Assembly (NCBI GenBank): GCA_004356615.1
Contig: SMWT01000159.1
Location: forward strand, 1-42,625
DNA from: Deltaproteobacteria bacterium
GTDB lineage: Bacteria > Bdellovibrionota > Bacteriovoracia > Bacteriovoracales > Bacteriovoracaceae
Direction: 5' to 3'
DNA length: 42,625 bases
Part shown: piece after piece, positions 2 to 22,718 of the stretch
How the letters are laid out: every line of letters starts with the position of its first letter
Position numbering within the stretch: the first letter of the stretch is position 1
Translations under genes and position numbers: made by a program
The notes under the pieces: generated by a model
Database searches by the model: none
The model's input: only the letters and a program-made list of their open reading frames with translations
What the model was told of the DNA's origin: nothing

Positions 2-205
2 ATTTTAGAAGAGGAAGATCATCTAAAGGCGATAGAGATTAAATCTTCCAAGATTATTGGAAAAAAAGATCTTCGTAATTTAAAAGATTTTATAAAGGGT
101 CATAAAAATCCGGTAAAAGGATATCTATTTTATCTAGGTGGCGAGTATCAGGAAATTGATTCCATTAAGTGCTTGCCTATCGCATCTATTTTTAGAGGTA
201 TTTAG
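2..205 (+). CDS. AAA+ ATPase, DUF4143-type C-terminal fragment (5' end lies outside the window)
   Basis: The frame is open from the window edge to TAG at 203-205. It translates ILEEEDHLKAIEIKSSKIIGKKDLRNLKDFIKGHKNPVKGYLFYLGGEYQEIDSIKCLPIASIFRGI. The IE(I/V)KSS...L..L..F...LP pattern is recalled from DUF4143 C-termini. No search was run. Confidence 0.5.
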   Translation: MLEEEDHLKAIEIKSSKIIGKKDLRNLKDFIKGHKNPVKGYLFYLGGEYQEIDSIKCLPIASIFRGI

Positions 206-504
206 GCCACTTCCTCGACTGAAAGCACCGTTTTTAGTCCGAAAGGTTTTAAGAACTTATCGAGGGTTTCTCTCTTTGGTTTTCGCACGCCCTTTAGGAA
301 TTTATCAATGGATTGTTTTCGCTCTCCTACGAGGTTGGCAAAGTCTGTGGTTCCAATTGATTTTATGGTGAAAATAAGGGTCTCCTCTATTGTCATGGGG
401 TCTTCATCTGGAAAATTCATTTGTAATAAGAAAAATCCCCTGGCAAACTCGGGATCTCTCATATTCCTGCTTAAATCTTCATCAAAGTTACTAGTTCGAA
501 ACAT
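202..504 (-). CDS. HTH antitoxin, HigA-like 'addiction module antidote protein'
   Basis: 100-aa ORF overlapping the upstream toxin ORF by 14 nt. The C-terminal HTH-like segment is TDFANLVGERKQSIDKFLKGVRKPKRETLDKFLKPFGLK. The toxin-first order is typical of HigBA modules. Confidence 0.7.
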   Translation of the reverse strand: MFRTSNFDEDLSRNMRDPEFARGFFLLQMNFPDEDPMTIEETLIFTIKSIGTTDFANLVGERKQSIDKFLKGVRKPKRETLDKFLKPFGLKTVLSVEEVA

Positions 505-823
505 AATTCCTCCAATATTTTTTTGCTAAAGAGATATCTCTTTTTTGACTCCCTTTGTCGCCTCCCAAGAGAAGTAGTATTATATTTCTTCCTTGATTAC
601 CGAAATAGATTCTAAAACCTGGGCCATATTGTATTTTTATTTCAAATATCCCATCACCAAGATTTTTTATATTTCTTTTGGCCCCACCAGATCTGACCCG
701 GACAACATAGGTCATTATTATGTCCTGTTCTCTAATATTTAGTTTCTTGACCCATTCCCTAAATGGTTCCTTCCCATTTTCTAGAGCGTAATAAATAACT
801 CTTCTTGCTTTATCGTAACACAT
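491..823 (-). CDS. RelE/ParE-superfamily toxin, HigB-like 'addiction module killer protein' (Gp49/DUF891-like)
   Basis: Contains ...YYALENGKEPFREWVKKL...GDGIFEIKIQYGPGFRIYF...ILLLLGGDKGSQKRDI. The GxG(I/L)xExR..xGPGYR(I/V)YF and LLxGGdKxsQ patterns are characteristic of the family. I start it at ATG 823, which has AAGG 7 nt upstream; the ORF track extends to 868. Confidence 0.75.
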   Translation of the reverse strand: MCYDKARRVIYYALENGKEPFREWVKKLNIREQDIIMTYVVRVRSGGAKRNIKNLGDGIFEIKIQYGPGFRIYFGNQGRNIILLLLGGDKGSQKRDISLAKKYWRNYVSN

Positions 824-943
824 AAATATTACCTTGTAAAGTGTTAGTAGTTGGGGATAGATCTGCAAAAAAGAGGTTGAGAATAAATATTTAAGTTAAT
901 GAAATTATTAAATGAATTTAAGGGGTGGTGAAAAAATTGATTT

Positions 944-5066: not shown

Positions 5067-5927
5067 TTAAAATTTTGAGGCCTTATAGGCCTTTTCAAAT
5101 TCACTTTCTCTTTCTAGCTCCCTTAAGAGTTTTTTCTGGGAGGGAAGAAGATTGGCCCAACTCTTTTTATCGGGACGGGATTTATGGGCGATTTCCAGCA
5201 TCCGGTCCCCGGCAAGTTTGGAGTAAGGAGAGGTATAAAACTTAATCTTTAACTGTTCAAGGGTATCGTTGGCCTTTTCGTATTCTTCCAGCTCAATTAA
5301 GGTGAGCGCTTTTAGGTAATGGGACTGGGGAATATTATAACAAGTGCCCTTAAGGGCATCTTCAAAATGCTTCAACGCCTTTTCAAAATTTTTACTGTTT
5401 TTTTCCAACTGGCCTAAGAGAATATGCCCGGGGCAGTAATCATTTTTTATCTTGACGGCCTGTAGCAGGTGCTTATGGGCCGCTCCGCGATCTTTAAATT
5501 TAAGCTTAAGTAGCGCTAGGTTATAGTGAATACGGTATTGGTGCTTGTAGATAAGGTTGCGTAAGATACCGAGATACACCTTCTCCGCTTGTTTGAACTT
5601 TTTTAGATGATAATAAAGGGAGGCAAGATTATTGCGCGCATCAGAATTCTTGGGATCGATATCAATTGCCTGCTGTAAATGATGCTCCGCTTGAGCGTAT
5701 TGCTTTTTAAAATAATAGGTCATTCCCAGGTTATTGTTGATCTTAGAATCACCCGGTTTGAGATCGTTTGCCTGTAAGAGATTATCCAGGGCCAGGGTAT
5801 ATTCCTTATCCAGCAGTTTTGAGGTTCCATGGGAATAATAAAGCTCTGCTTTTTTTTCTCTGGTTGTGAGCCCATTGCTGCCACAGGACAGAAGGAAAAC
5901 TAAAAATAGTAAGGTAAATGATTTCAC
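5067..5927 (-). CDS. TPR-repeat lipoprotein, PilW/PilF-like
   Basis: The GTG start at 5927 has GAGGAGGAG 4 nt upstream. It gives the signal peptide (M)KSFTLLFLVFLLSCGS with lipobox LLSC. Multiple TPR-like repeats follow (A..yy..g.y..A...l..Al..dP). The ORF track extends to 5951. Confidence 0.7.
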   Translation of the reverse strand: MKSFTLLFLVFLLSCGSNGLTTREKKAELYYSHGTSKLLDKEYTLALDNLLQANDLKPGDSKINNNLGMTYYFKKQYAQAEHHLQQAIDIDPKNSDARNNLASLYYHLKKFKQAEKVYLGILRNLIYKHQYRIHYNLALLKLKFKDRGAAHKHLLQAVKIKNDYCPGHILLGQLEKNSKNFEKALKHFEDALKGTCYNIPQSHYLKALTLIELEEYEKANDTLEQLKIKFYTSPYSKLAGDRMLEIAHKSRPDKKSWANLLPSQKKLLRELERESEFEKAYKASKF

Positions 5928-6020
5928 GATTCTCCTCCTCAATATGACCATAATTGTATAGGTTGGGTGGGCAAAAAGCTACCAGTGAATGAAAACCCGT
6001 ATGGGATTATTATATAAGCT

Positions 6021-7745
6021 ATGACCAATATTTTAAATAAATTTCCCTTCCTACTTGAGCTGTTTTTCAATGGGACGTTTATTTTATTTTACTCGCTAAA
6101 TATGGCCAACAATATACCCGTCAGTTGGGATATGGATATGGTCCATATTGTCCTGGATGTAGGTACCTGGCTGATACCCATCGTTATCTTTATTTGTCTG
6201 ATCTTTAATTACCTGCAATCAGAAAAGTTTGAAGTATTTTTTAGAAAGCACATTATCTCACTAGTAGTCTTTGTTCCCCTGGTAATTACCTGGGGAGATC
6301 AGGAATTTGCCTTTTGGCTCTCCTGTGTTCACTTACTGGCCAGTATTCTGTCCTTGTATGACGAAGATGCTAAGGAAAGCTCTGATAAGAAGTTTCGCAA
6401 TACCCTGTTAAAATTATTTGCGCTTAGACCGGCCCAATTGGTGTTTCTATCCTTTTCCGGGGTTATTCTAATTGGCACCTTTTTACTGGCGCTACCTTTG
6501 GCAAGTACAGGCCCTAAGGCCTTAAGCTTTATCGACGCCTTATTTACCGCCACCTCCGCAACTTGTGTAACCGGTTTATCAACTATCTCTACTGCTAGTG
6601 ACCTCAGTTGGTTTGGGCAGGGAGTGGTACTAATTTTGATTCAAATCGGTGGCCTCTCCATTATGACCCTGTATTCTTCCATGGCGATTCTGCTTGGTAA
6701 GGCCATGGGGATGAAAGAGAGAGTGGTGATGCAAGATCTTTTAGATGTGGCCTCGCTTGATGAGCTCTTTTTAATGATTGTTAACATCATAAAGTATACT
6801 TTTTTCATCGAGCTATGGGGCGCTATTATTTTAACCTTTGCCTTTAGCTACGAAGGCTTTGAATTTGGTGAGTCCCTCTATTATGGCCTTTTCCATTCTA
6901 TTAGTGCCTTTTGTAATGCTGGGTTTTCACTCTTTGACACCAGTCTTGAATCTTTTGCCACGAGCCCTCTGATCACTGGAACCATTTGTGTCTTGATTAC
7001 TCTTGGGGGTGTGGGCTTTATTGTACTGCGGGAGTGCAGAGACGCTATTATAAATAAAAGAGCTCTGGTCAGACTTACCCTGCATACTAAAATAGTTTTA
7101 CTCACTACTTTGTTTTTAACCGTAGGTGGCGCCCTTTTTATCTTCTTTGGGGAATTTGTTAATGGACTTGAGGCCTACACCTTATGGGAAAAGATTCAGG
7201 TCTCTATTTTTCAAAGTATAACCCTTCGAACAGCCGGGTTTAATACCATCCCCATGACCAATCTCCATGGTTACACTTTATATGGCATGACGCTTTTTAT
7301 GTTTATCGGGGGCTCTCCCGGTTCAACCGCCGGTGGGGTGAAGACCACAACGCTAAGTATACTGGTCCAGTCAATCATTACCACGCTGAAAGGAAAGCAA
7401 CGAGTCACGATCTTTGATCGAAATATTCCAGGCCCTATGGTTGTGCGAGCTACTGCTCTTACCTTTATCTATATTTTGACCATTTCCTTTTTTATCTTGG
7501 TCCTGATGAAGCTAGAGCCCAAACAGACCTTTTTACCACTGTTTTTTGAAGCGGTTTCTGCTGGTGCCACAGTAGGCCTTACCCTGGGAGTTACCCCTTC
7601 ACTTTCCGTCTTAGGAAAGATATTTATCTCCCTGCTAATGTTGATAGGAAGAATTGGGCCTTTGACATTAGTATTGGCCGTTGGTGGAAGAATAAAAGAG
7701 GAAGGAAAATTCGACTACCCAGATGGTCGGGTTTTACTTGGATAG
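6021..7745 (+). CDS. TrkH/KtrB-family K+ transporter membrane subunit with about 130-aa N-terminal membrane extension
   Basis: 574-aa polytopic protein. It contains repeated selectivity-filter-like segments (TATCVTGLS, FCNAGFS, RTAGFNT, GSPGSTAGGVKT). A TrkA/KtrA gene follows it. Confidence 0.9.
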   Translation: MTNILNKFPFLLELFFNGTFILFYSLNMANNIPVSWDMDMVHIVLDVGTWLIPIVIFICLIFNYLQSEKFEVFFRKHIISLVVFVPLVITWGDQEFAFWLSCVHLLASILSLYDEDAKESSDKKFRNTLLKLFALRPAQLVFLSFSGVILIGTFLLALPLASTGPKALSFIDALFTATSATCVTGLSTISTASDLSWFGQGVVLILIQIGGLSIMTLYSSMAILLGKAMGMKERVVMQDLLDVASLDELFLMIVNIIKYTFFIELWGAIILTFAFSYEGFEFGESLYYGLFHSISAFCNAGFSLFDTSLESFATSPLITGTICVLITLGGVGFIVLRECRDAIINKRALVRLTLHTKIVLLTTLFLTVGGALFIFFGEFVNGLEAYTLWEKIQVSIFQSITLRTAGFNTIPMTNLHGYTLYGMTLFMFIGGSPGSTAGGVKTTTLSILVQSIITTLKGKQRVTIFDRNIPGPMVVRATALTFIYILTISFFILVLMKLEPKQTFLPLFFEAVSAGATVGLTLGVTPSLSVLGKIFISLLMLIGRIGPLTLVLAVGGRIKEEGKFDYPDGRVLLG

Positions 7746-7817: not shown

Positions 7818-8513
7818 ATGATTGTAGCAGTCATAGGTCTTGGTACATTTGGTGCAAAAACAGCTATCGCCCTTTATAGCAAAGGCGCAGAGGTTGTGGC
7901 CATTGATAAAAATGATGCTTTGGTGGACAACCTAAAAGATAGGGTTACCCACGCTGTCGCTCTAGATGTTACCAACGAGAGATCTCTTAGATCGGTTAAT
8001 ATATCTGATGTTGATGTGGCGGTTGTGGCCATTGGAGATAACATCGCAAACTCCATTATGGCAGTTGCTATGCTGAGAAAGATGGGGGTAGGCCGGGTTA
8101 TCGCCCGTGCCACCAGTACCGTTCATGAACATGTTTTAGAGGAAATAGGTGCTTCGGAGATTATTCGCGTGGAAGAGGAGATGGGAGAGATCGTCGCCTC
8201 TAATATTGTCGCTCCCCACGTACTTGAAAGATACGACTTTGCCGCCGGTTATTCCGTTATGGAAGTTAAGCTAGGTAGAAAATTTGCTGGCAAGACGCTG
8301 GTGGAGTCTAAAATCCGTCAAAATTATTCACTTAATATCGTCGCTCTACAAAAGAAAATTCCCTATATTACCGAAGATGGTAAAGCGGCCTTCAAATTTG
8401 AAATCAACGATTGCCCTATGCCAATGGATATAATCGAAGAAGATGATGTTGTGGTGGTCGTTGGCAGTGAGAAGAACTTTAACCGCCTGTTTAGTGATTT
8501 GGGAGAGCTATAG
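7818..8513 (+). CDS. TrkA/KtrA-family K+ uptake regulatory subunit (RCK: TrkA-N plus TrkA-C)
   Basis: Starts MIVAVIGLGTFGAKTA, a GxGxxG Rossmann motif. The C-terminal TrkA-C-like segment includes DDVVVVVGSEKNFNRL. Confidence 0.9.
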   Translation: MIVAVIGLGTFGAKTAIALYSKGAEVVAIDKNDALVDNLKDRVTHAVALDVTNERSLRSVNISDVDVAVVAIGDNIANSIMAVAMLRKMGVGRVIARATSTVHEHVLEEIGASEIIRVEEEMGEIVASNIVAPHVLERYDFAAGYSVMEVKLGRKFAGKTLVESKIRQNYSLNIVALQKKIPYITEDGKAAFKFEINDCPMPMDIIEEDDVVVVVGSEKNFNRLFSDLGEL

Positions 8514-9725
8514 TTGAACCTTTCGCTTAGAAATAGAGTTGCAGCTAGCTTTATTGTGGCCACATTAGTGGTCCTTATTCTATCGTTTACGGTTTTTCAC
8601 TTTTTAAACACCCTCAATAAAGAAATCGAAGAGATAACATTTAAATCCAATCAATTAACGCTTCTAACTGATGAAATCAGAATTTCTGCGGTAATGGTTT
8701 TAAAATATCAAAGAAGAATTTTGGCACAAAATCGCACCCCGGATGTGGTTGAGAAACTACTTAGTTTGTGTGACTCCTTTACCTGGCAGCTGCAAAAACT
8801 GGAATCCTACTATCGTGATTCAGATATCAAGGGGGTGATCGTCAAGATGCTCTCCTATGTGGACTCCCTTAAAACGGTCCTGTCCAATGCTTCACTCTTT
8901 CACCGAGATACGGCCGGAATAAGTACTGTTGGAGAACTCTCGGATAAAATCTTGGATACCTATCTGGAGTTTCAAGATTTTCAATTGCTACAGTCAAGTG
9001 AGCGGGATAACAAAATCAAATCGATTATTAGAGAGTCCAAAAGGAATATGATGATTACGCTCATCATCGCCTTTTTAGGTTCCATCATCCTGGGACTAGT
9101 GATTCCCGGTAAGATTGCGCTGCCTTTTAAAAAGATTAAAGATGCCATCCGCGAGTTGCAAGAGAATAACTTTGACGTCTCCATCTATTACACCCAAAAG
9201 GATGAAATTGGTGAGATCGCGCAAGAGATGAACAAGATGATTGCCTCCTTCAAGAAATTCGATGAGCTGAGAACTGAGCGCATTGAAGTTGAAAATAGAA
9301 AGTTTGATGTTTTGGCCAACATTGTTAAAAAACCCATTCTGGTGGCCGATGCTGAAGGTAAAGTTGTCTATATGAACAACCGGCTCTATGCCTTAATGGA
9401 GGTCTCGAGTGAGGATGTTATTGGCAAAGAGCTTAAAGAAACTCCCTGCCCGAAATCAATCGTCTCCTCCTTTGAGCTGGCGCTTAAGCGAAAATCTAAA
9501 ATTGAAAACATAGAAGTGGTTATTCCCAAAAAAGATAAACGTGATAAAGAGGAAAATGGATCTAAAATCGAAATCGAAGAAGATGGGGAAGTTGTAGAGA
9601 AAAAACCTAAAGTAAAAGAGGAAGATCTCCTATTTAAGGGATTTGCCACTATTATCCCTATTCGGGGAAAAAAGAAATCCATGGATTATTATCTGATGGT
9701 GCTCTCTAAAGAGATGATGACTTAG
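8514..9725 (+). CDS. Membrane HAMP-PAS signalling protein without a recognisable output domain
   Basis: The TTG start directly abuts the upstream TAG, with GGGAGAG 6 nt upstream. It has two TM segments and a HAMP domain (LPFKKIKDAIRELQENNFDV...KDEIGEIAQEMNKMIASF). A PAS-like segment follows (ILVADAEGKVVYMNNRLYALMEVSSEDVIGKEL), then a K/E/D-rich insert. No kinase, GGDEF or MCP motifs were seen. Confidence 0.7.
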   Translation: MNLSLRNRVAASFIVATLVVLILSFTVFHFLNTLNKEIEEITFKSNQLTLLTDEIRISAVMVLKYQRRILAQNRTPDVVEKLLSLCDSFTWQLQKLESYYRDSDIKGVIVKMLSYVDSLKTVLSNASLFHRDTAGISTVGELSDKILDTYLEFQDFQLLQSSERDNKIKSIIRESKRNMMITLIIAFLGSIILGLVIPGKIALPFKKIKDAIRELQENNFDVSIYYTQKDEIGEIAQEMNKMIASFKKFDELRTERIEVENRKFDVLANIVKKPILVADAEGKVVYMNNRLYALMEVSSEDVIGKELKETPCPKSIVSSFELALKRKSKIENIEVVIPKKDKRDKEENGSKIEIEEDGEVVEKKPKVKEEDLLFKGFATIIPIRGKKKSMDYYLMVLSKEMMT

Positions 9726-9797: not shown

Positions 9798-11597
9798 ATG
9801 CATAATAAATATATTAGAAACTTCTCCATCATTGCTCATATCGACCACGGTAAATCTACCCTGGCAGATAGACTCTTAGAGTTTACCGGTACCGTCTCCG
9901 CTAGAGAGTCTAGAGATCGTCTTTTAGATAATATGGATATTGAGAGGGAGCGGGGAATCACCATAAAGGCGCAAACGGTTCGTCTTATTTATAAGGCAAA
10001 AGACGGCCAAGACTATGAGTTCAATTTAATCGACACCCCGGGACATGTGGATTTTAGCTACGAGGTGAGTAGATCCCTCGCTAGTTGTGATGGAGCACTT
10101 TTAGTGGTTGATGCCAGCCAAGGGGTTGAAGCGCAGACACTATCAAATGTTTATATGGCGCTGGAAAATGATTTAGAGATTATACCAGTGCTCAACAAGA
10201 TCGATCTGCCACATGCAGATGCCCCAAGAGTTAAAAACGAAATTGAAGAAATCATTGGCATCGAAGCGCAGGATGCTTGTGAGGTTTCTGCCAAATCAGG
10301 CCTAGGCATAGAAGATTTGTTGGAAACCATTGTTTTAAAAATTCCCCCACCAACTGGTGAGCGAGGTAACAAGCTGCAGGCGCTTATTTTTGATTCATGG
10401 TTTGATACCTATCAAGGGGTGGTGGTTTTAGTTCGAATTTTTGAAGGAACAATTAAACTTAAAGAAAAGATTCATTTTAAATATTCAGGTGAAAGCTATG
10501 AAGTTTTAAAACTGGGGGTGAACGCCCCCTTTTTTACGGAAGTAAAAGAGCTCGGTGCGGGTCAAGTTGGCATGATCATCTGTGGGGTTAAGACCATTCG
10601 CGATGTTAAAGTTGGCGATACCATTATTAGTGCTAAATATACTGATACTCCTACGCTGGAGGGGTTTAAGGAAAGTAAGCCCATGGTTTTTTGTGGCATC
10701 TTTCCGGTGGATAGTGTGGACCATTCTATTTTAAAAGAATCGCTGGAAAAACTAGCGCTCAATGATGCCTCTTTTACCTACGAGCCGGAAAACTCCAACG
10801 CTCTTGGACTGGGATTTAGATGTGGTTTTCTTGGGCTCCTGCATATGAATATTATTCAGGAGCGGCTTGAGCGGGAATTTGATTTAAATCTTATCAGCAC
10901 CGCCCCCTCTTGTAATTATATGGTGAAGACCACCAGAGGCGAAGAGATGATGGTGGATAATCCCGCGGATCTTCCCGATCAGACCTTAATAGAATCCATT
11001 AGTGAGCCTATTGTGCAAATTAATATCCATGTCCCCAACGAGTTCGTGGGCAATGTTATAAAACTTTGCAGTGAACGAAGGGGAGTGCAAAAGGATATGA
11101 AATATATCACCACTGAGCGGGTCCAGCTAATTTATGATCTACCGCTAGTGGAAATGGTTTTTGATTTTTATGATAAATTAAAGGGCATGACAAAAGGTTA
11201 TGCCAGTATGGATTATGAAGTGGTGGGTTATGAGGAATCTGATTTGGTAAAACTTGATATTTTATTAAATAACGATCCGGTAGATGCGCTCTCGCTAATT
11301 TGTCATAGATCAAGCGCTCAAGTTAAGGGACGGGAACTGGTTGGAAGGCTGAGAAAGCTGATCAATCGGCAACAATTTGATATTGCCATTCAAGCGGCGG
11401 TTGGGGCCAAGATCCTGGCCCGTGAAACAGTTAAAGCACTTCGCAAAAATGTTTTGGCCAAGTGTTACGGTGGCGATATTAGCCGTAAAAGAAAACTGCT
11501 GGAAAAACAAAAGAGGGGTAAAAAGCGAATGAAGATGGTTGGATCTGTGGAAGTTCCCCAATCTGCCTTCCTCGCAGTCTTAAAAACGGATAATTAA
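9798..11597 (+). CDS. lepA: Translation elongation factor 4 (LepA)
   Basis: Contains [28 protein letters not shown] and NKIDL GTPase motifs, plus the LepA C-terminal segment [25 protein letters not shown]. The ORF track begins at TTG 9780; ATG 9798 fits the usual N-terminus. Confidence 0.97.
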
Positions 11598-12193
11598 TGG
11601 AAACTAAAATTAGGGAAAATTTTGATAAGGCCATTTTAAATTACTCTAAGGATAAATTTAAAGGAGTTTATTTAAAGGCCAAGGATGAGTTTTTTGACCT
11701 CACTGGTTCGATTCATGCAGACCATGAAAACTTTGAACAGCGGATGAACTCTTTTTATGAGTGGTACTTTTTCAACTACAGTGAATCTAAAATTTTAAAA
11801 GACTACACTGCAAAGGATTCTTTTTTTAAAGATTTTAAATACTCCATCTTTGAATTTTCGGGAAAAAACTTAAGAGGCCGGTGTGTCTTTAAGGATTTTA
11901 TCGGCAAAGATAAAGTGCTGCTACCAAAAGGCGTTATGCCCCCGGGATTAACCAAAGATGATATAATCGTTGGCAGATTTATTGCCCTGGAGGAAGGACA
12001 CTACCTCTTACCAGGATTTTTTATCCTGCCAGGTAAAGTGAAATCCATTTTAAAACGTGAGGCCAGACGTATCGCTAAAATTAATGATGTGGATAAAAAA
12101 GAAGAATTTTTACTTAAAATCGAAACGCTCTATAATCGGTGGCGAAGCTACAACCACCTAGATCCGGCAAAAATATTTGTCTATGGGCCCTAG
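11597..12193 (+). CDS. Hypothetical protein, start overlaps the lepA stop codon
   Basis: 198-aa ORF whose ATG overlaps the lepA stop (TAATG). I recognised no domain. Confidence 0.5.
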   Translation: METKIRENFDKAILNYSKDKFKGVYLKAKDEFFDLTGSIHADHENFEQRMNSFYEWYFFNYSESKILKDYTAKDSFFKDFKYSIFEFSGKNLRGRCVFKDFIGKDKVLLPKGVMPPGLTKDDIIVGRFIALEEGHYLLPGFFILPGKVKSILKREARRIAKINDVDKKEEFLLKIETLYNRWRSYNHLDPAKIFVYGP

Positions 12194-13968
12194 TCCCAGA
12201 TTCTTTTATAAGACTTAATCATCTGATACATGTTGCTGTCCAGGGGACTGTTATTATATTTCTCGGCATAAAAGAGTACGTTATTTCCCTGATTATCTTT
12301 TATCTCCAGAGCAGGCCCAACGCTTATGAGTTCTTTGACAATTTTAAGCAGTCGGTTGTTGGCCTTGCCCCGCGATTTTAGCGCCACCATGAGCGGAGTT
12401 CGTCCCTTGGCATCTTGGGCCTCAATGGAAAACTCGGCGCCATTTGCTAAGAGTAGCTTGACCATCCTATCATCACGTCTGCCGGCAGCGATTGAGAGCG
12501 CATTTCTCTTATCTTTGGTTACAACATTGATCCTGGCACCAGCGTCGATCATTTTTTTTGCCGCTCCAAAGTTACCTTGTTCCACTATTTTTAAGAACTT
12601 CAAATCAGCTTTAATGGGATTAGGCCATTTGCCCTTGTAATAGACTAACTTAAATGGATTAGGGCCTTTCTTAAAGGTCATCTTTTTCCATTTTCTCAAA
12701 AGAGTGATATTTGGCCAAACGTAATTTTTTTTGGGGGGAGCTCTTTTGGCCCACTTTTTATAGCGGGCGATAGCAGGCCACTTGGGTTTTTCACCATCAA
12801 TATAGGGGCGGTTGTTAATGCCTGGGCCACTTTGCCTGGTGGATGCGGTATAGATTTTTTTAAGGGGGGCAAAAGGGCCTTTCCATTTTCGGGAATCTCG
12901 CAGCCAGGCATAATCTGGCCGCTCGTAAGAGCTCCAGGTGCCGCCGATAATATTATCGTCTTTATCCAGCTCAAGCAGATATTCATAATCTTTTATCCCA
13001 AAGCCTTTATGGGGTATTTTTGAAAACCAGCTTTGGTGCATTTCTTTGACGTAGTGAACTTTCACATGCACATAGACCACTTTTTCCGTTCCCTTGGCGG
13101 CACGGTCATGAGTTCTTTCTGGCAGCTGTTTCATCCTTTCAATGGAGTAACTATAGACTGGTTGATTCCAAACTTGACTTCCCCGGTCCACATCAATCAT
13201 AAAACCATGATTTAAAAGTCCAATTTGATTGGTTAAAACTACGTGAAAGGCACCCGCATTCACATCACCACATTCACCTCGTTCGCTGACTCCATAAAAC
13301 TCATCTTCGCTTAGCTTGCCAGCTTTAACTTGCGCCCATAGGGCGTCTAAGTCGTCAAAACATCTCTCGCCGATGGTTTTTTCGGGACTCACTTTATCCA
13401 TATCCAGCATAGAGGCGAGCAGTCCTTTTATATCTGAGGCGCCAAAGGGAATTCGATGACCTAGTTTGCCGGTTATCATTACTGGTTTGGGGTTATCAAA
13501 GGTGATGGTGGACTCACTCCAGGCATTACAAATTCCTGCCCAGTCATCAATCTTATATTTTGGATCGTATTGGGGAGAGCTTTTTATCTGGGTGTTGATT
13601 TTCGAGTAGTTCCTTTCACTTTTAACTGTGTCCCAATTTAGATTTCCCAGGTAGAGGTCGTATTTTTCGGCCGGAGATAGGGTGTTTAGATCCACTCCGG
13701 TCATATTTTTCATATCATGGAGGGGGTAGTCCCAATATTTGCTACTATCTTTTACCCCTTTCAGGTTCCAACGATAGGTAATTCCCCCGTCCATATGCGG
13801 CCAATAGTTTCCCGTCCAGGGATAGGTTTTAAGCTCTCCGGATTTGGGAAGCTTACTTAGCCGGTATTCATAGTTTTTATCAATTTGCCAGTGGGGATTA
13901 TTGCGGTAGTTCCAAGACTTGGCGCCTGCTTCAATGGAAAATAATGATAAGAGAATTATCCACTTCAA
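12190..13968 (-). CDS. Secreted GP42-type transglutaminase-elicitor-like domain protein with C-terminal ankyrin repeats
   Basis: The TTG start has AAGGAG 6 nt upstream. The signal peptide is (M)KWIILLSLFSIEAGA. A Cys-containing WAGICNAW motif has its Cys codon at 13528-13530. An exact VWNQPV match to the Pep-13 core sits at 13156-13173. The C-terminal ankyrin repeats (NALSIAAGRRDDRMVKLLLANGAEF, GRTPLMVAL...) span about 12214-12576. Confidence 0.7.
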   Translation of the reverse strand: MKWIILLSLFSIEAGAKSWNYRNNPHWQIDKNYEYRLSKLPKSGELKTYPWTGNYWPHMDGGITYRWNLKGVKDSSKYWDYPLHDMKNMTGVDLNTLSPAEKYDLYLGNLNWDTVKSERNYSKINTQIKSSPQYDPKYKIDDWAGICNAWSESTITFDNPKPVMITGKLGHRIPFGASDIKGLLASMLDMDKVSPEKTIGERCFDDLDALWAQVKAGKLSEDEFYGVSERGECGDVNAGAFHVVLTNQIGLLNHGFMIDVDRGSQVWNQPVYSYSIERMKQLPERTHDRAAKGTEKVVYVHVKVHYVKEMHQSWFSKIPHKGFGIKDYEYLLELDKDDNIIGGTWSSYERPDYAWLRDSRKWKGPFAPLKKIYTASTRQSGPGINNRPYIDGEKPKWPAIARYKKWAKRAPPKKNYVWPNITLLRKWKKMTFKKGPNPFKLVYYKGKWPNPIKADLKFLKIVEQGNFGAAKKMIDAGARINVVTKDKRNALSIAAGRRDDRMVKLLLANGAEFSIEAQDAKGRTPLMVALKSRGKANNRLLKIVKELISVGPALEIKDNQGNNVLFYAEKYNNSPLDSNMYQMIKSYKRIWD

Positions 13969-17639: not shown

Positions 17640-18758
17640 GTGAGTATAAAAAATAGGTGGTTTTGCCTAGAAAAATTTCAATATGGGAAAAAATACCTAA
17701 GGGATTTCAAGTACTTAAAGAGATCCTTTCTATCCTTGGCTTTCATAGAGAGAGTCATGGACGTCTCTTTTATAAATACCCTGTTATCGCCGGGAAATTT
17801 CTTGTTGATGCTGGCCCCGCCGGGTTGGGGCAAGACCCGGATACTCAGATCGCTATACAGCGAGTTTGATCGCAAAATTATTTTTATCTCCCCCCTTAAG
17901 GCCTTGGCCATGGAGTTCGCTGAAGCTTCTGAAGAGCTTGGAAACATTTTATATATTTCTAAAAGAAGTGAGCGGGGTAAATTGCATCAGTTCATTAAAA
18001 AGAGAAAAGCGCTTTTAGTGTTAACTCCTGAGATGATGGATGAGAATTATTTTTTAGAGCTCTCTTCTCTGGGCGAAAAATACCTTTTGGTTTTGGATGA
18101 GTTTCATCTTTTTTATTTTTGGGGGTGGGATTTTAGGCCGCTTTTGTGGGAGAGCGCCATGGGGCTGGCAGAGACGGGGATTGCCATTTTAGGTTTAAGT
18201 GCCACCTTTGGAGATGAGTGGATAGAGCAGTGGCAAAAGGATTTTAAAAATAGTCAGGAAAATTTAATTCTAATAAATCTGGGAAATCAGGTTTTAAAAA
18301 ATCATCCGATACATATTTATAAGCTACCCTTTAAAAATATGTTTATGAGAAGGTTTTTCTTTGAAATGCAAGGCGAGGGAGTGATCCTTTATTTTTGCAA
18401 ATATAGATCTGAAGTGGATTTTTATGTGGAGTATTTTACCCTAAGAGGTGTTGATGTTTTGGGTTGCAAAGGAGGCGAGGTGGCCCATTTTGTAAAAAAT
18501 TTGAAAAAGATGCCAAATCCACAGTGTATTTTTGCTACCAGCGCATTAAGTCATGGTGTCAACCTACCCTCCATAAAAAAGATCTTCATTGGTTTTAAAG
18601 TATTGGATTTAAACTTTTGGATTCAAATGGTAGGAAGAGGAGGACGCCGGGGAGAACCCTTTGAACTCTTTCATCAGGATAAGTTTGCGGGGCAATTTAA
18701 GCTAAGAGTCTTCCTCTTTGATTTTTATTTGCGTCTGATAAACTTGTTGAAATTATGA
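17640..18758 (+). CDS. Minimal RecQ-like superfamily-2 helicase core (no Zn-binding, winged-helix or HRDC domains)
   Basis: Helicase motifs: I APPGWGKT, Ia ISPLKALAMEF, II LDEFHLFYFWGWDFRP (RecQ-type DExH..WGxDFRP), III LSATF, V ATSALSHGVNLP, VI QMVGRGGRRG. The start is uncertain: GTG 17640 lies only 5 nt from the divergent rsmE start, and ATG 17757 is the alternative. The stop overlaps the recO start (ATGA). Confidence 0.75.
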   Translation: MSIKNRWFCLEKFQYGKKYLRDFKYLKRSFLSLAFIERVMDVSFINTLLSPGNFLLMLAPPGWGKTRILRSLYSEFDRKIIFISPLKALAMEFAEASEELGNILYISKRSERGKLHQFIKKRKALLVLTPEMMDENYFLELSSLGEKYLLVLDEFHLFYFWGWDFRPLLWESAMGLAETGIAILGLSATFGDEWIEQWQKDFKNSQENLILINLGNQVLKNHPIHIYKLPFKNMFMRRFFFEMQGEGVILYFCKYRSEVDFYVEYFTLRGVDVLGCKGGEVAHFVKNLKKMPNPQCIFATSALSHGVNLPSIKKIFIGFKVLDLNFWIQMVGRGGRRGEPFELFHQDKFAGQFKLRVFLFDFYLRLINLLKL

Positions 18759-19537
18759 GAGTAAAAGTAGAAGGCCTGCTCATTTCTAAAATTCCTTTTG
18801 GTGATAAACATTTTATCGCCAAACTTTTACTTAGAAATGGCAAAAAAATATCTGTTGTTTTTTACGGTGCCCGGGGAGCGGGGAAAAAACGAACATCTTC
18901 TTTGGCCGATCTCGGGCATATGCTCGCGGTAGAACTAGGAAGAGCTAAATACGGTGAACACCTCTATCCCGCTAAAGAATGGTCCCTTATCTGGGCACCT
19001 AAAAAAATAAGAGAAGATTACAAAGCGTTCTCCCTAATGAGCCTCTATTTTGAAATTGTTGCCAAGTTTTGCCTGGAAGATCATCTTGAAACAGAAAGTG
19101 ATGAGCACGACGGCCCTTTTAGAGTGCTCTCCAACGCTGTTTTTTTTCTAGAGGACAGTTTAAAAAAGGGAGACTTTAACCCCTATGAACAGTTGCTGCT
19201 TTTTCTGGGAAAAGTTTTTCAGGATCAAGGTATTTTTCCTAAAATGGGGGACTGTATATTTTGTGATAGAAAGTTAGAGCATGTTTCCCAGATGAGTCTG
19301 GTTTTTGAACAGGGAGGATTTTCCTGTTCCCTATGCCTGGGCCCACAATCTGAAGGAGTGGGCCGGGATGCCTGGCAATTTTTAAATATGGTGAGATCTA
19401 GCAGCTATCAAGATTTCTCCTTTAAAACCCTTGAATTTCAAAGTATTAAGTCTCTCTGCCAACTGCTATTAGGGCATTTTTGTTATCAATTTCATCTTGA
19501 GGAAAGGCAGTTTAGAGCGTTGCCTATGGTGCTCTGA
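18755..19537 (+). CDS. recO: DNA repair protein RecO
   Basis: Starts MRVKVEGLLISKIPFGDKHFIAKLLLRNGKKISVVFYGARG, an OB-fold N-terminus. A Cys4 zinc motif is present (CIFCDRKL...CSLC). The last 39 codons are duplicated at 20791-20910. Confidence 0.85.
   Translation: MRVKVEGLLISKIPFGDKHFIAKLLLRNGKKISVVFYGARGAGKKRTSSLADLGHMLAVELGRAKYGEHLYPAKEWSLIWAPKKIREDYKAFSLMSLYFEIVAKFCLEDHLETESDEHDGPFRVLSNAVFFLEDSLKKGDFNPYEQLLLFLGKVFQDQGIFPKMGDCIFCDRKLEHVSQMSLVFEQGGFSCSLCLGPQSEGVGRDAWQFLNMVRSSSYQDFSFKTLEFQSIKSLCQLLLGHFCYQFHLEERQFRALPMVL
19418..19533 (+). repeat. Direct repeat, left copy (in-frame 3' end of recO)
   Basis: 116 nt identical base for base to 20791-20906 (offset 1373 nt), checked by eye across the full length. 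Confidence 0.95.
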
Positions 19538-19552
19538 TATCTTCCTAAGATA
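19538..19552. promoter_or_regulatory. Palindrome TATCTT-cct-AAGATA at the left junction (candidate operator or small hairpin)
   Basis: It shares the half-site TAAGA(T)/(A)TCTTA with the palindrome at 19643-19655. TAAGATACT (19546-19554) is the exact reverse complement of AGTATCTTA (19647-19655). Confidence 0.3.
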
Positions 19553-19625
19553 CTGAAAATACAAACTTAAGGTGTTTTATATCTAAATATTATGGTTTTT
19601 TCATGCAAAAATTCTTTAAGAAATA

Positions 19626-19634
19626 TGCTAAAAT
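19626..19634 (+). promoter_or_regulatory. Extended -10 promoter candidate TGcTAAAAT for the Xre/RES operon
   Basis: TG-n-TAAAAT lies 34 nt upstream of ATG 19668. AGGAGGA RBS at 19659-19665. There is no clear -35. Confidence 0.35.
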
Positions 19635-19642
19635 ACGATATA

Positions 19643-19655
19643 TAAGAGTATCTTA
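19643..19655. promoter_or_regulatory. Palindrome TAAGA-gta-TCTTA between the -10 and the RBS (candidate antitoxin operator)
   Basis: Perfect 5+5 inverted repeat placed over the expected transcription start. The same half-site occurs at 19538-19554. Confidence 0.3.
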
Positions 19656-19667
19656 CACAGGAGGATT

Positions 19668-20045
19668 ATGACGACACTCACCCTAAGCAATGCCCCCATT
19701 TATGATGATAATGGGGCCTTAAACTTACCTTATTTAGTAGATAGCTATGGCCTGACCAGAAAGGAATTTGCTGAAATTTCTGGAGTAAGTGTAAGCACCC
19801 TTAGTAGATCAGGCCCCCCTTCCCCTCATACTAAATCGAGAGTGGTAGAGCTTGTGGGGATCTATGTCCTGCTTTGGAAAATAAGCAAAGGAAATGAAGA
19901 GCAAATCAAGTCATGGCTTGATGAGCCAAAAGCAGAGTATTGGGGTCTTTCCCCTATTCAATTTATGAAAATTGATAACGAGAATATTTCTACTGTTTTC
20001 AAAAATATCCGTGAAATGGAATACGGAGAGGCCATGGGAACATGA
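19668..20045 (+). CDS. Xre-family antitoxin with DUF2384 (MbcA/ParS-like toxin-binding) domain
   Basis: HTH segment LTRKEFAEISGVSVSTLSR. The C-terminal WLDEPKAEYWGLSPIQFM is typical of DUF2384. The stop overlaps the toxin start (ATGA). Confidence 0.8.
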   Translation: MTTLTLSNAPIYDDNGALNLPYLVDSYGLTRKEFAEISGVSVSTLSRSGPPSPHTKSRVVELVGIYVLLWKISKGNEEQIKSWLDEPKAEYWGLSPIQFMKIDNENISTVFKNIREMEYGEAMGT

Positions 20046-20746
20046 AAGAAGAATCTATTCACCATTATCTATCAAAGATTATTCAGGATTTTTCTGTCGG
20101 ATTAAGTCTTGAAGAAAATAAAGTTCATCAGAAAATAAGGTGGATTAAGGAACATAAACTTGAAATCTTAAATTATTTTGAGTCTTTGGCCAAGAGGCCC
20201 CATAACTCCCTTTCCTCAACTTCTACTAAAAAAATAACGGGAGACAATTGGTTCAGGGCCGTTACCTATGATTATTCAAAAATACCTTTAAGCTTTGAAG
20301 GTTCTTTAAAAAGTTTTGCAAGGTTTCATCGGGTAGGTCAACCTACCATTTATCTTGCTGAGAGCTATAAAACCGCAATGGAGGAAGTTCGATTTTCTAA
20401 AAACTTAGTTGCCATGACTACCTTTGGAATAAAAATTAACCTGCAAAGGATTCTCGATCTATCAGGTTCTGGAAATCTCTACAAAAATTTTAGGATTTCT
20501 AAAAATTACTTTAAAGGTCCCTGGGAACAATTCTCAAATATTGGGCTGGAATACTATACCCATTATTTAAGTGACCATTTAAGAAAACTTCCAATTGAAG
20601 GTTTTTTATATGAGTCTAACGCCAATCCAAAAAATATTTGCCTTTGCCTCTTTCCTGAAAAAATGATTAAAGGCTCAACTCTTCAGGTAATCGGTGATTA
20701 TATTGAAATAAATTCAAATGATCTTTATTTTGAAGGGATGGCATAA
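20042..20746 (+). CDS. RES-domain toxin (MbcT/Res-type, NAD+-degrading family)
   Basis: RES signature positions: ARFHRVGQPTIYLAES (Arg), AMEEV (Glu), GFLYESNANP...CLCLFPEK (Ser). It is paired with a DUF2384 antitoxin. It has an N-terminal extension of about 70 aa. Confidence 0.75.
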   Translation: MKEESIHHYLSKIIQDFSVGLSLEENKVHQKIRWIKEHKLEILNYFESLAKRPHNSLSSTSTKKITGDNWFRAVTYDYSKIPLSFEGSLKSFARFHRVGQPTIYLAESYKTAMEEVRFSKNLVAMTTFGIKINLQRILDLSGSGNLYKNFRISKNYFKGPWEQFSNIGLEYYTHYLSDHLRKLPIEGFLYESNANPKNICLCLFPEKMIKGSTLQVIGDYIEINSNDLYFEGMA

Positions 20747-20790
20747 TTTGTTAATCAGGGTCGGCCATAATGGCAACTGATAATCTTTTT

Positions 20791-20906
20791 TCCTTTAAAA
20801 CCCTTGAATTTCAAAGTATTAAGTCTCTCTGCCAACTGCTATTAGGGCATTTTTGTTATCAATTTCATCTTGAGGAAAGGCAGTTTAGAGCGTTGCCTAT
20901 GGTGCT
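20791..20906 (+). repeat. Direct repeat, right copy (orphaned recO 3' end)
   Basis: Identical to 19418-19533. It continues GTAA rather than CTGA, so the same ...LPMVL terminus ends CTG TAA instead of CTC TGA. Confidence 0.95.
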
Positions 20907-20910
20907 GTAA
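20791..20910 (+). pseudogene. recO 3'-terminal remnant (last 39 codons plus TAA)
   Basis: Encodes SFKTLEFQSIKSLCQLLLGHFCYQFHLEERQFRALPMVL*, with no upstream recO body. It lies 19 nt upstream of the ABC exporter ATG. Confidence 0.8.
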
Positions 20911-20929
20911 TTAATGTAGAGTCCCACGG

Positions 20930-22642
20930 ATGCATACACACTTAGTCAAAATCCTTTGGCCTTACGTAAAACCACATTGGAAAAAAGCGCTTGGCGCACT
21001 TTTTTTTGCGATAATCTTAGCGGCGGTTAAATGGGCCCAGGCGGCACTAGTTAAACCCGTTTTCGACAAGGGATTAAGTAAAAGTGGGACCATGGAAGAG
21101 ACCCTGATGCTGGCAGGTCTGTTAATGCTTCTGATGATCATTAATTTTCCCGCCAGGTTTTTTCACTTCTATTGGATCCGCTACATTGTGGATAAGGCCA
21201 CCTGCCAGCTACGATCTAATATCTATGAAAAAATACAAAGACTGCCCATCGCTTATTTTAATCAAAACAAGCTGGGGGTTTTAACTTCTAATATTATTAA
21301 CGACACTCAGACTTTTTCCGGGGGCTTTAGGGCCTCCATGGACCTCATTCGCGAGCCCCTTTATGCCATCGCTTTACTGGGACTGGCATTTTATAGAGAT
21401 TGGGCCTTGACCATGGTCATTTTTGTCGTCGCTCCACTTTTTCTTATAATTTTTAGCAAGAGTGGAAAAAGTGTGAAGAAAAACCAGGCAGATGTGCAGG
21501 AAGAACTTGGTAACCTTACTCACAACATTGGTGAAGGACTCAGCGGTCAAAAAATTACCAAGGCCTTCAACCTGCAAGACTATATTCTAAAACGCTTTGA
21601 AGGCACCCAGAATAAATTTTTTAAATCCCTAATGAAAACCACCTGGGTCGAAGAAATGGCCCACCCTTTGGTGGAGTTGGTGGGAGGCCTGGCCTTTGCA
21701 GGAATTATTGTCTTTGCTCACTATAGAATTCAGTCAGGGGCCACGAGCCCAGGGGATTTCGTGAGCTTTGTCACCGCCATGGCACTTTTTATGGATCCCA
21801 TCAGAAAGCTATCCCAGGCCAATATTAAGTTGAGTCAGGCCGATGCAGCGGAAAAGAGAATCTCCAAACTTTTAGATCTTCCCGAAGAAGTGGACAACGG
21901 GGATATGGAGCAAATTGCTTTTAAAGATAAGATTACGGTTAAAAACCTCTCGTTCTCTTATGGCAATCACCAAGTGTTAAAAAATCTAAACCTGGAAATT
22001 AAAAAAGGTCAAAAGGTCGCCTTGGTAGGGCTTTCCGGCTCTGGTAAATCCACTTTGATCAATCTCTTATTGGGACTTTATAGGCCCGAATTAGGTGAGA
22101 TAAAAATTGATGGGATACCTGTTGATAGAATTAAGTTAAAGGGACTGAGAGAGCTCTTTGGACTAGTCAGCCAAGATATATTTCTCTTTCATGACTCTAT
22201 CCTGGAAAATTTAACCTTGGGGAGAGACTACTCAATGGAACAAATTGAAAAGGCCATCGACGTGGCCTACGCCAGGCCTTTTATTGATCGGCTGCCAGCA
22301 AAATATGACACCATGATCGGGGACCGGGGAGTTAAACTCTCAGGCGGTCAGCAACAAAGACTCACCATCGCCCGTGCCTTTTTACAAAATACCGATATCC
22401 TCCTTTTCGACGAGGCCACATCGGCGCTGGATAATGAGTCCGAACGGATGGTGCAAAAAGCACTGGATGAAATTTCGAAAGACAAAACGGTTATCGCCGT
22501 GGCCCATCGGTTGTCCACCATCCAAGACTTCGACCATATTTATGTCTTAAGTGAAGGGGAGTTGATGGAACACGGAACCCACGATGAACTAATGGATCGA
22601 GGTGGGGAATATTTCAAGCTTTATAACTTGGGTCAAAAATAA
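20930..22642 (+). CDS. msbA: ABC exporter, fused permease/ATPase (MsbA-like lipid A/lipid flippase family)
   Basis: 570 aa with six N-terminal TM helices. Motifs: Walker A GLSGSGKST, signature LSGGQQQR, Walker B ILLFDEATSALD. The msbA assignment rests on architecture only. Confidence 0.8.
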   Translation: MHTHLVKILWPYVKPHWKKALGALFFAIILAAVKWAQAALVKPVFDKGLSKSGTMEETLMLAGLLMLLMIINFPARFFHFYWIRYIVDKATCQLRSNIYEKIQRLPIAYFNQNKLGVLTSNIINDTQTFSGGFRASMDLIREPLYAIALLGLAFYRDWALTMVIFVVAPLFLIIFSKSGKSVKKNQADVQEELGNLTHNIGEGLSGQKITKAFNLQDYILKRFEGTQNKFFKSLMKTTWVEEMAHPLVELVGGLAFAGIIVFAHYRIQSGATSPGDFVSFVTAMALFMDPIRKLSQANIKLSQADAAEKRISKLLDLPEEVDNGDMEQIAFKDKITVKNLSFSYGNHQVLKNLNLEIKKGQKVALVGLSGSGKSTLINLLLGLYRPELGEIKIDGIPVDRIKLKGLRELFGLVSQDIFLFHDSILENLTLGRDYSMEQIEKAIDVAYARPFIDRLPAKYDTMIGDRGVKLSGGQQQRLTIARAFLQNTDILLFDEATSALDNESERMVQKALDEISKDKTVIAVAHRLSTIQDFDHIYVLSEGELMEHGTHDELMDRGGEYFKLYNLGQK

Positions 22643-22718
22643 GCACTGCAACTACCTTTTTTTTCTTATCAAATAAACCCCTGTGATGTAGGATTTGGCC
22701 TTTTTGAGGGAGATTATT

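Follow-up and report, generated by a model that had tools for sequence, protein, structure and literature searches.

The arrangement called "insertion with long target duplication" was reportedly named by Nobusato et al. 2000 (Gene 259:99) together with Furuta et al. 2010. Here we describe an insertion that resembles this arrangement in a 42,625-nucleotide (nt) contig (SMWT01000159.1, assembly GCA_004356615.1) from a bacterium of the Bacteriovoracaceae; this entire stretch of DNA is referred to as the window. At the 3' end of recO in the window, an insert carrying genes for an Xre-like antitoxin and a RES-domain toxin is bracketed by two identical copies of a 116-nt segment. The locus very probably represents a true insertion flanked by repeats that derive from the recipient.

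Long-target-duplication insertions that lack mobility genes have been described for restriction–modification (R–M) systems (PMC2853133, PMC3874152). Furuta, Abe and Kobayashi (2010) reported type I–IV R–M systems with flanking repeats of 46–423 bp, often in naturally competent species (PMC2853133). The repeats often span the start or stop codon of the target gene, which stays intact, and DNA breakage by the restriction enzyme was suspected by these authors (PMC2853133). The class has also been recognized by Lim et al. for R–M systems "and other DNAs," and a multi-step alternative pathway has been described (PMC3457768). A first-pass annotation of the window had judged the topology to be unusual for a two-gene toxin–antitoxin (TA) unit. 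Given the published cases, it is less so.

The repeat, its junctions and the reality of the arrangement

The copies of the repeat are located at 19418–19533 and 20791–20906, are identical over all 116 nt, and are offset by 1373 nt, which agrees to the base with the first-pass annotation. When one mismatch is allowed, the repeat grows to 120 nt (19414–19533 and 20787–20906). Here TTTC at 19414–19417 is aligned with TTTT at 20787–20790, leaving a TTT microhomology at the right joint. A self-BLAST over all 42,625 nt found this to be the sole significant repeat of the window, and a chance origin is therefore excluded. The total gain is 1,373 nt, consisting of a 1,257-nt insert and one repeat copy.

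Both copies encode the same 39 C-terminal residues of RecO. Copy 1 is the in-frame 3' terminus of recO, whose product ends in LPMVL and whose final codons are CTC TGA. The repeat halts 4 nt before the recO stop, which is made of insert DNA. Copy 2 terminates with CTG TAA at 20905–20910, and the start codon of an MsbA-like ABC exporter gene is found 19 nt further downstream, at 20930. These assignments of the two gene ends, also made at first pass, were confirmed. The recO gene itself (18755–19537) is intact, with its last 39 codons in copy 1, and encodes a protein of 260 amino acids (aa) that has the same length and C-terminus as its orthologues at unoccupied sites.

Between the repeat copies, the insert begins with a 62-nt non-coding end (19534–19595) that starts C TGA (TATCTT...), thereby completing the last Leu codon and the stop codon of recO. 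The TA operon then begins with a conserved leader (19596–19667) that includes an AGGAGG ribosome-binding site and a putative promoter containing GCTAAAATACGATA; together, these two segments place a 134-nt AT-rich leader before the antitoxin gene inside the insert. A promoter consensus scan returned no site past its threshold in 19596–19667, and the leader may nonetheless carry a promoter. More generally, a promoter and terminator scan of the non-coding parts of the insert yielded nothing above shuffle expectation, and the stretch from recO to msbA showed no convincing terminator. The antitoxin gene (19668–20045) and the toxin gene (20042–20746) overlap by 4 nt.

The insert ends with a 44-nt non-coding spacer (20747–20790). 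This spacer brings an ATG at 20770 that is in frame with the orphaned recO end in copy 2, creating a predicted 46-aa open reading frame (ORF; 20770–20910) that consists of MATDNLF plus the 39 C-terminal residues of RecO and ends at the ancestral TAA. The ORF is called as a gene in contigs L003, a JGI contig, and L017. The ancestral recO end (G TAA) and the 19-nt spacer that precedes msbA occupy 20907–20929, in a layout identical to that of unoccupied sites. As a consequence of the insertion, msbA now starts 1,392 nt 3' of the recO stop codon, where formerly the distance was 19 nt. All of these features are on the plus strand.

Pfam scans that covered essentially every substantial ORF detected no integrase, transposase or resolvase gene in the 42.6 kb, and ARAGORN found no tRNA gene there. 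The absence of integrase, transposase and tRNA genes between the copies, claimed at first pass, therefore extends to the whole window. No Rfam family was detected in 18500–21500, and neither the junctions nor the insert termini carry inverted repeats. The junctions are also free of dif-like XerC/XerD sites; the only weak match in the window (625–647) is at chance level.

Two further sequence features were considered for the insert ends and were rejected. One is an imperfect short direct repeat (CTGATATCTT at 19534, CTGATAATCTT at 20777); the other is a degenerate second recO end at the right side of the insert. In neither case did the local-alignment score exceed that of random window segments (p ∼0.07–0.09 and 0.87–0.9).

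A duplication of this kind could in principle be an assembly artefact or chimera that is absent from any real genome, and every sequence used here is an assembled metagenome contig. However, exact-protein look-ups revealed the identical arrangement in three further, independent metagenome assemblies (ENA ERZ27251146, JGI 3300024060 and JGI 3300009139). These contigs are 99.94%–99.97% identical to the window, come from different samples and pipelines, and each carry private single-nucleotide polymorphisms (SNPs). Moreover, the ERZ27251146 contig was assembled at k=141. This value exceeds the 116–120-nt length of the repeat, so that each junction context is covered by single k-mers. Both joints are clean, and no ORF is disrupted. 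An artefact is very unlikely given this concordance among four assemblies, to the point that we find a spurious duplication scarcely credible.

The SNPs that distinguish the filled haplotypes in this region are located at 20131 and 20364 in the RES gene and at 20913 in the 19-nt spacer, with none in either repeat copy. Position 20913 is a derived A in the window and in contig L003, and is G in contigs L001 and L002 and in all relatives. Among the four filled haplotypes, three SNPs fall in the 1.26-kb insert and spacer region versus ∼6 in ∼9–10 kb of flank. SNP density thus looks higher in the insert than in the flank, on small numbers.

Empty sites in relatives and the origin of the duplicated segment

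RecO homologues of this type are rare, with 17 found among 5.8 billion proteins, and the genomic contexts of the five closest were retrieved. Each of the five has an empty site. The closest relative (L009) shares 98% aa identity in RecO and 94.5% nt identity with the window. RecO identity is 86% for two others (L008 and L010) and 80% for the remaining two (L006 and L007), and the 57.8-kb contig of L006 retains full synteny from lepA to ppdK. In all five, recO ends with CTN TAA or CTN TAG and is followed by 19 nt (e.g., TTGATGTAGAGTCCCACGG) and the exporter ATG. This is the empty site that the first-pass annotation had predicted, and the opposite outcome, in which all relatives are filled and carry diverged repeats, is excluded.

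The empty sites in the five relatives indicate that copy 2 and the sequence downstream from it are ancestral, as had been proposed, whereas 19534–20790 is new and 116 nt have been duplicated. None of the five relatives has a TGA stop codon at the end of recO, which assigns the C TGA of the filled site to the insert and bears out the earlier suggestion that the recO stop came with the incoming DNA. Only ∼6% of random insert offsets would yield a Leu codon followed immediately by a stop. On the sequences compared, the insertion is a lineage-specific gain. It happened after this lineage and that of L009 (5.5% nt divergence) had separated, and before the four sampled haplotypes diverged, since these already differ at the three sites given above.

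The comparison with L009 also bears on where the duplicated DNA came from. Within the 116-nt block, L009 and the window differ by six substitutions, whereas the two window copies differ at none. Barring gene conversion, the duplicated DNA is thus the recipient lineage's own and not a surrogate gene end brought in by a foreign element. The absence of differences in 2 × 116 nt suggests either that the insertion dates from about the later half of the branch, or that the copies have been homogenized.

These data are relevant to the explanation offered at first pass, which is that the locus arose by a Campbell-type single crossover. In this scenario, a circle of 1,373 nt, made up of the TA operon and ∼116 nt of the recO 3' end, is integrated by a RecA-dependent crossover, and the repeats permit later excision and re-integration. 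The topology does fit, since the whole insert is bracketed by a homology segment as expected for insertion–duplication, the incoming copy brings its own stop codon, and perfect repeats allow excision. However, several points speak against a recO-bearing circle. The recO piece is identical to the recipient at positions where even the nearest relative is off at 6 of 116. The circle must therefore stem from the same lineage, which presupposes the structure to be explained. In addition, five homologous cassettes located elsewhere lack any recO fragment, neither a circle nor a same-lineage empty site is on record, and 116 nt of homology is short for efficient RecA-mediated integration. We therefore consider the Campbell crossover unlikely.

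With regard to same-lineage empty sites, all three contigs on record that encode this exact RecO are filled, and an exact-protein look-up of the MsbA-like protein, made to find such a site, gave no record. A search of metagenome contigs with a degenerate junction pattern covering the filled site, the empty site, and the circle or tandem gave 0 matches; the filled site too was missed, which shows the collection to be without this lineage and makes the search uninformative.

The Xre/RES cassette and its relatives

The cargo is an intact-looking pair of genes, and its predicted products belong to a type II TA system. The Xre-like antitoxin (125 aa) matches PF20432 with 28.1 bits versus a cut-off of 25.8. 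A C-terminal toxin-binding domain of the MbcA/ParS type is suggested by a sub-threshold match of residues 23–121 to NF049845 (Xre_ParS_antitoxin; E 4e-7, 30 bits vs a cut-off of 90) and by a weak match to PDB entry 8qnl (E 0.32). At first pass, the region between the repeats was said to contain only a promoter-like region, a DUF2384 Xre antitoxin and a RES toxin. We likewise find only the leader, Xre and RES, but DUF2384 was not detected by Pfam, which reports the PF20432 helix-turn-helix (HTH) family instead. The toxin (234 aa) is assigned to the RES family (PF08808) with an E value of 1e-13 and 52 bits versus a cut-off of 23.2.

Characterized RES toxins degrade NAD+ (PMC6436930), or act by ADP-ribosylation, and a RES–Xre locus has been shown to stabilize a plasmid (PMC10896132). 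Residues R94, Y104, E115 and S192 of the toxin are invariant among its eight homologues, which is consistent with an active RES site. We read R94, E115 and S192 as the conserved RES Arg, Glu and Ser, respectively. The cassette resembles the described RES–Xre systems MbcTA, ParST, P. putida Res-Xre, KnaAT and NatRT in having the antitoxin gene first and directly upstream of the toxin gene in a single operon, in the overlap of the two genes, and in combining an Xre-like HTH protein with a RES domain that has the conserved Arg, Glu and Ser. In contrast to those systems, the window pair falls in a small and highly divergent subfamily, its toxin is extended by ∼70 aa at the N-terminus, and PDB sequence searches with the toxin gave no meaningful match, either with the single sequence or with a profile. 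The extension (20042–20250, RES residues 1–70) precedes the RES domain in the toxin and its closest homologues and is predicted, at low confidence, to be helical; it is missing from the shorter homologues P0024 and P0025 (146–151 aa). An AlphaFold2 model of the toxin is unusable (pLDDT of 42).

This toxin family is small. The eight homologues were recovered from 5.8 billion proteins, and a RES profile scan of 185,579 species-representative genomes returned a single match, in Bacteriovorax sp. BSW11_IV (43% identity). No relatives of the toxin were found in viral contigs, plasmids or phages, and no close ones in the metagenome and genome collections. The pairing of antitoxin and toxin genes is also seen in L011–L013 and L015. 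By sequence, the pair thus appears to be a type II TA system of a family that has so far turned up in Bacteriovoracaceae-like bacteria.

Homologous cassettes (L011/L012 and L013) share 65%–71% aa identity with that of the window and are located in unrelated contexts on low-GC contigs (28%–37% GC); contigs of this kind include one from Bacteriovorax sp. BSW11_IV. Nucleotide similarity to them is confined to the leader, Xre and RES, starting at ∼19596 and stopping where the toxin gene ends, and the leader is conserved with L011 and L012 from this same point. The 62-nt left end of the insert shows no similarity to the flanks of the homologous cassettes. The insert has a GC content of 0.348 versus 0.412 for the window, and the value at third codon positions (GC3) is 0.285 for the RES gene versus 0.37–0.49 for its neighbors. 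Thus, the GC contrast with the flanks that had been proposed as a check is indeed present. This contrast, together with the low GC content of the homologue contigs and the restriction of similarity to the cassette itself, fits a cassette acquired from within the same broad clade, from a member of lower GC content.

One of the homologous cassettes is itself found among repeats. In L011 (NCBI metagenome-assembled genome GCA_973467905.1), a 67%-identical Xre/RES cassette and a gene for a 186-aa protein lie between two units of ∼392 nt that are 87.5% identical, and a third copy of the unit is present upstream (region coordinates 1334–2067, 5280–6426 and 8494–8892). The two better-preserved copies each encode a 55-aa membrane peptide and an HTH protein of 77–80 aa, and next to two of the units are a resolvase gene and a duplicate of part of that gene. 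The locus has the look of a mobile region that grew by modular accretion. It is a second instance in which a member of this Xre/RES family is bracketed by long direct repeats.

Another explanation is that the window cassette is a remnant or satellite of a site-specific element, like a cis-mobilizable element (CIME). According to this explanation, an island with a tyrosine or serine recombinase took the recO 3' end as attB and brought a replacement end as attP; either an internal deletion then left just the TA genes between attL and attR, or the unit is mobilized in trans by a recombinase from another locus. When an island targets the 3' end of a gene, the gene is restored with a terminus from the island and direct repeats remain, and the chance that a random insert would supply the stop codon as seen here is ∼6%. 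The L011 cassette, moreover, lies beside a resolvase gene in a repeat-rich region of mobile appearance. However, no recombinase is encoded in the 42.6 kb, the insert has only 62 + 44 nt of non-TA DNA, and there is no inverted-repeat or dif-like core. A 116-nt block that matches this lineage alone is also atypical for the attP of an element that targets a protein gene; Furuta et al. required repeats >30 bp so as to exclude typical site-specific repeats (PMC2853133). Furthermore, no other occupant of the recO 3' end was seen in the five relatives. The cassette occurs at recO in only one lineage, the homologous cassettes are without recO sequence and the relatives are unoccupied, and so the earlier description of the unit as a gene-3'-end-targeting island finds no support. 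We regard an origin from a site-specific element as rather improbable.

The genes that surround the insertion are typical of a housekeeping chromosome: pepA, lptF/G, trkAH, lepA, rsmE, a RecQ-like helicase gene, recO, msbA, glyS, ppdK, metK and flagellar genes. The helicase gene (17757–18758, plus strand) opens the helicase–recO–msbA string and is identified by Pfam DEAD and Helicase_C domains and weak NCBIfam recQ matches; its longest ORF starts at 17640, and it is called as a 333-aa protein in L001–L003. RecO is divergent. It matches TIGR00613 (reco) with an E value of 2e-9, which is below the cut-off, and gives weak matches to RecO_N and RecO_C, and a close homologue has been annotated by JGI as a RecF-pathway repair protein. 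The exporter gene (20930–22642, plus strand) encodes 570 aa with ABC_membrane and ABC_tran domains, and its match to TIGR02203 (MsbA_lipidA; E 2e-150) is below the equivalog cut-off. There is no obvious Shine–Dalgarno sequence at its start.

Three additional observations concern other parts of the window. A second TA pair is located at the window edge (202–868, minus strand) beside a SpoU methylase gene. It pairs a RelE/ParE-family toxin of the Gp49/upstrm_HI1419 type (491–868; TIGR02683, E 1e-25) with a 100-aa protein encoded downstream (202–504), and no flanking repeat for this pair was found within the window. The minus-strand gene at 12190–13968 encodes a 592-aa protein in which a "transglutaminase elicitor" domain (PF16683, E 1e-36) is joined to ankyrin repeats. 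This pairing is unusual for a bacterial chromosome; the protein is conserved in L006 and is possibly an effector. Finally, L006 carries a gene for a 646-aa protein with a phospholipase-D domain between msbA and glyS (10515–12480) that is missing from the corresponding interval of the window (22642–22657), with no flanking repeats; this further indel is two genes away from recO.

Mode of insertion and comparison with known systems

We somewhat favor the view that the locus formed in situ by a recombinase-free duplication of the target. In this explanation, a horizontally acquired Xre/RES operon of 1,257 nt, with its own leader, would have entered 4 nt before the recO stop, and 116–120 nt of sequence native to the recipient would have been duplicated on insertion. 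Host recombination or repair, rather than an element-encoded recombinase, would have made two illegitimate joints in overlapping register, with 116 nt between them. The enzymology could involve fill-in of staggered breaks. Alternatively, the foreign DNA may have been copied in a break-induced process that then switched template, returning to a position upstream of the break.

Persistence of the insert could be explained in part by its harmlessness, as the RecO C-terminus is exact, the orientation of the operon is kept, and a terminator does not seem to have been added. Direct repeats of 116 nt that are only 1.4 kb apart should delete readily, and the RES toxin, if it acts like its characterized relatives, would penalize cells that delete the cassette. 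This combination would account for why the topology is seen with addiction modules, whether R–M or TA. More speculatively, the 46-aa ORF may preserve the native translational or regulatory context of msbA through coupling.

Several considerations weigh against duplication of the target in situ. A Campbell crossover would give the same end state, as would a decayed integrase element or a multi-step route. No match was found for the ends of the insert (62 nt and 44 nt), which leaves them with no donor sequence. The insert also starts with C TGA, such that RecO keeps its last residue and then stops; given the low frequency of such offsets, this start hints mildly that an intact RecO was selected for or that the incoming DNA carried a gene end. 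The identity of the copies could also be due to gene conversion between them. The same-lineage empty site is absent from the record, and the evidence consists of assembled contigs. TA activity, addiction and coupling to msbA are predictions. Finally, the cargo is not an R–M system, whereas the published class is defined on R–M genes and its authors suspected restriction breaks.

Among the explanations with the same end state, the multi-step route of Lim et al. 2012 would begin with a simple insertion 4 nt before the stop, followed by tandem duplication of the 116 nt plus cassette, and then by replacement of the second cassette with the empty-site allele. Every step is common, the pathway has been discussed for a similar repeat–insert–repeat pattern (PMC3457768), and TA addiction would tolerate the loss of one of two cassettes, though not of both. 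However, three events are needed, the final crossover is limited to a 116-nt segment, and no simple-insertion or tandem-cassette intermediate is present in the four filled assemblies. We judge this route decidedly improbable.

A bolder proposal is that the 1,373-nt unit is a recombinase-free mobile element. It would loop out via its repeats and re-enter recO of related cells by host homologous recombination, with the captured recO piece providing homing and the toxin killing cells that lose the unit. In wider terms, long-target-duplication insertion would be a cargo-independent pathway that is visible with addictive cargo only. We consider this idea a long shot. If it is true, the products of such a pathway would surface only when the cargo is an addictive R–M or TA system, since the repeats delete all others.

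The window locus can be compared with several classes of mobile DNA. Transposons and insertion sequences were rejected, as the window has no transposase, the junctions have no inverted repeats, and the duplication is 116 nt long. Integrative mobile elements exploiting Xer (IMEX) and Acinetobacter pdif modules are more similar in that they are small, recombinase-less and often TA-bearing, and are moved by host enzymes. However, the window cassette is flanked by a 116-nt coding duplication and has no dif-like site at its boundaries, and an Xer-dependent module was likewise rejected. Gene-3'-end islands and CIMEs share with the locus the direct repeats at a gene 3' end and the replacement of the terminus by element DNA, and CIMEs are also without a recombinase of their own. 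In contrast to these elements, the window has neither an integrase nor a recombinase-type core, its repeat is far longer than the cores typically used in protein genes, the insert measures no more than 1.26 kb, and the relatives show no reuse of the site. Campbell insertion–duplication likewise brackets the insert with a homology segment, restores one gene copy and orphans one fragment. It differs in that the window segment belongs to the recipient itself and is bounded on either side by an illegitimate joint, and in that no circular donor is known.

The closest resemblance is to insertions with long target duplication. Like these, the locus holds a small addiction unit and lacks a mobility gene, its empty site has a single repeat copy, its insert deviates in GC content, and its repeats are located at the end of a target gene that is left intact. 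When the features used by Furuta et al. are considered, the direct repeats are longer than 30 bp (116 nt, exact), single-copy empty sites are present in related genomes (L006–L010), and the insert is shorter than 20 kb (1,257 nt), lacks a mobility gene and is flanked by a repeat that is not a tRNA. The repeat occurs as a single pair within the 42.6-kb window. Two differences are apparent. The cargo is a type II TA system (Xre antitoxin plus RES toxin) and not an R–M system, and the repeat ends 4 nt short of the stop, which the insert supplies. We found no report of this signature with classical TA cargo in the literature searched, which excluded subscription journals.

Because the RES toxin is not a nuclease, the restriction-break explanation cannot apply to the window insert. 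The combination of base-exact empty sites and a non-nuclease TA cargo points away from a break made by the cargo and towards a host repair or replication pathway coupled with a bias in retention, in which addiction shields a repeat-flanked insert that is otherwise prone to deletion. The locus also illustrates how entry of a TA module into a tightly packed housekeeping operon (helicase–recO–msbA) can leave both neighbors undamaged. By this comparison, the insertion is a case with TA cargo of a known class of insertion whose mechanism is unsolved.

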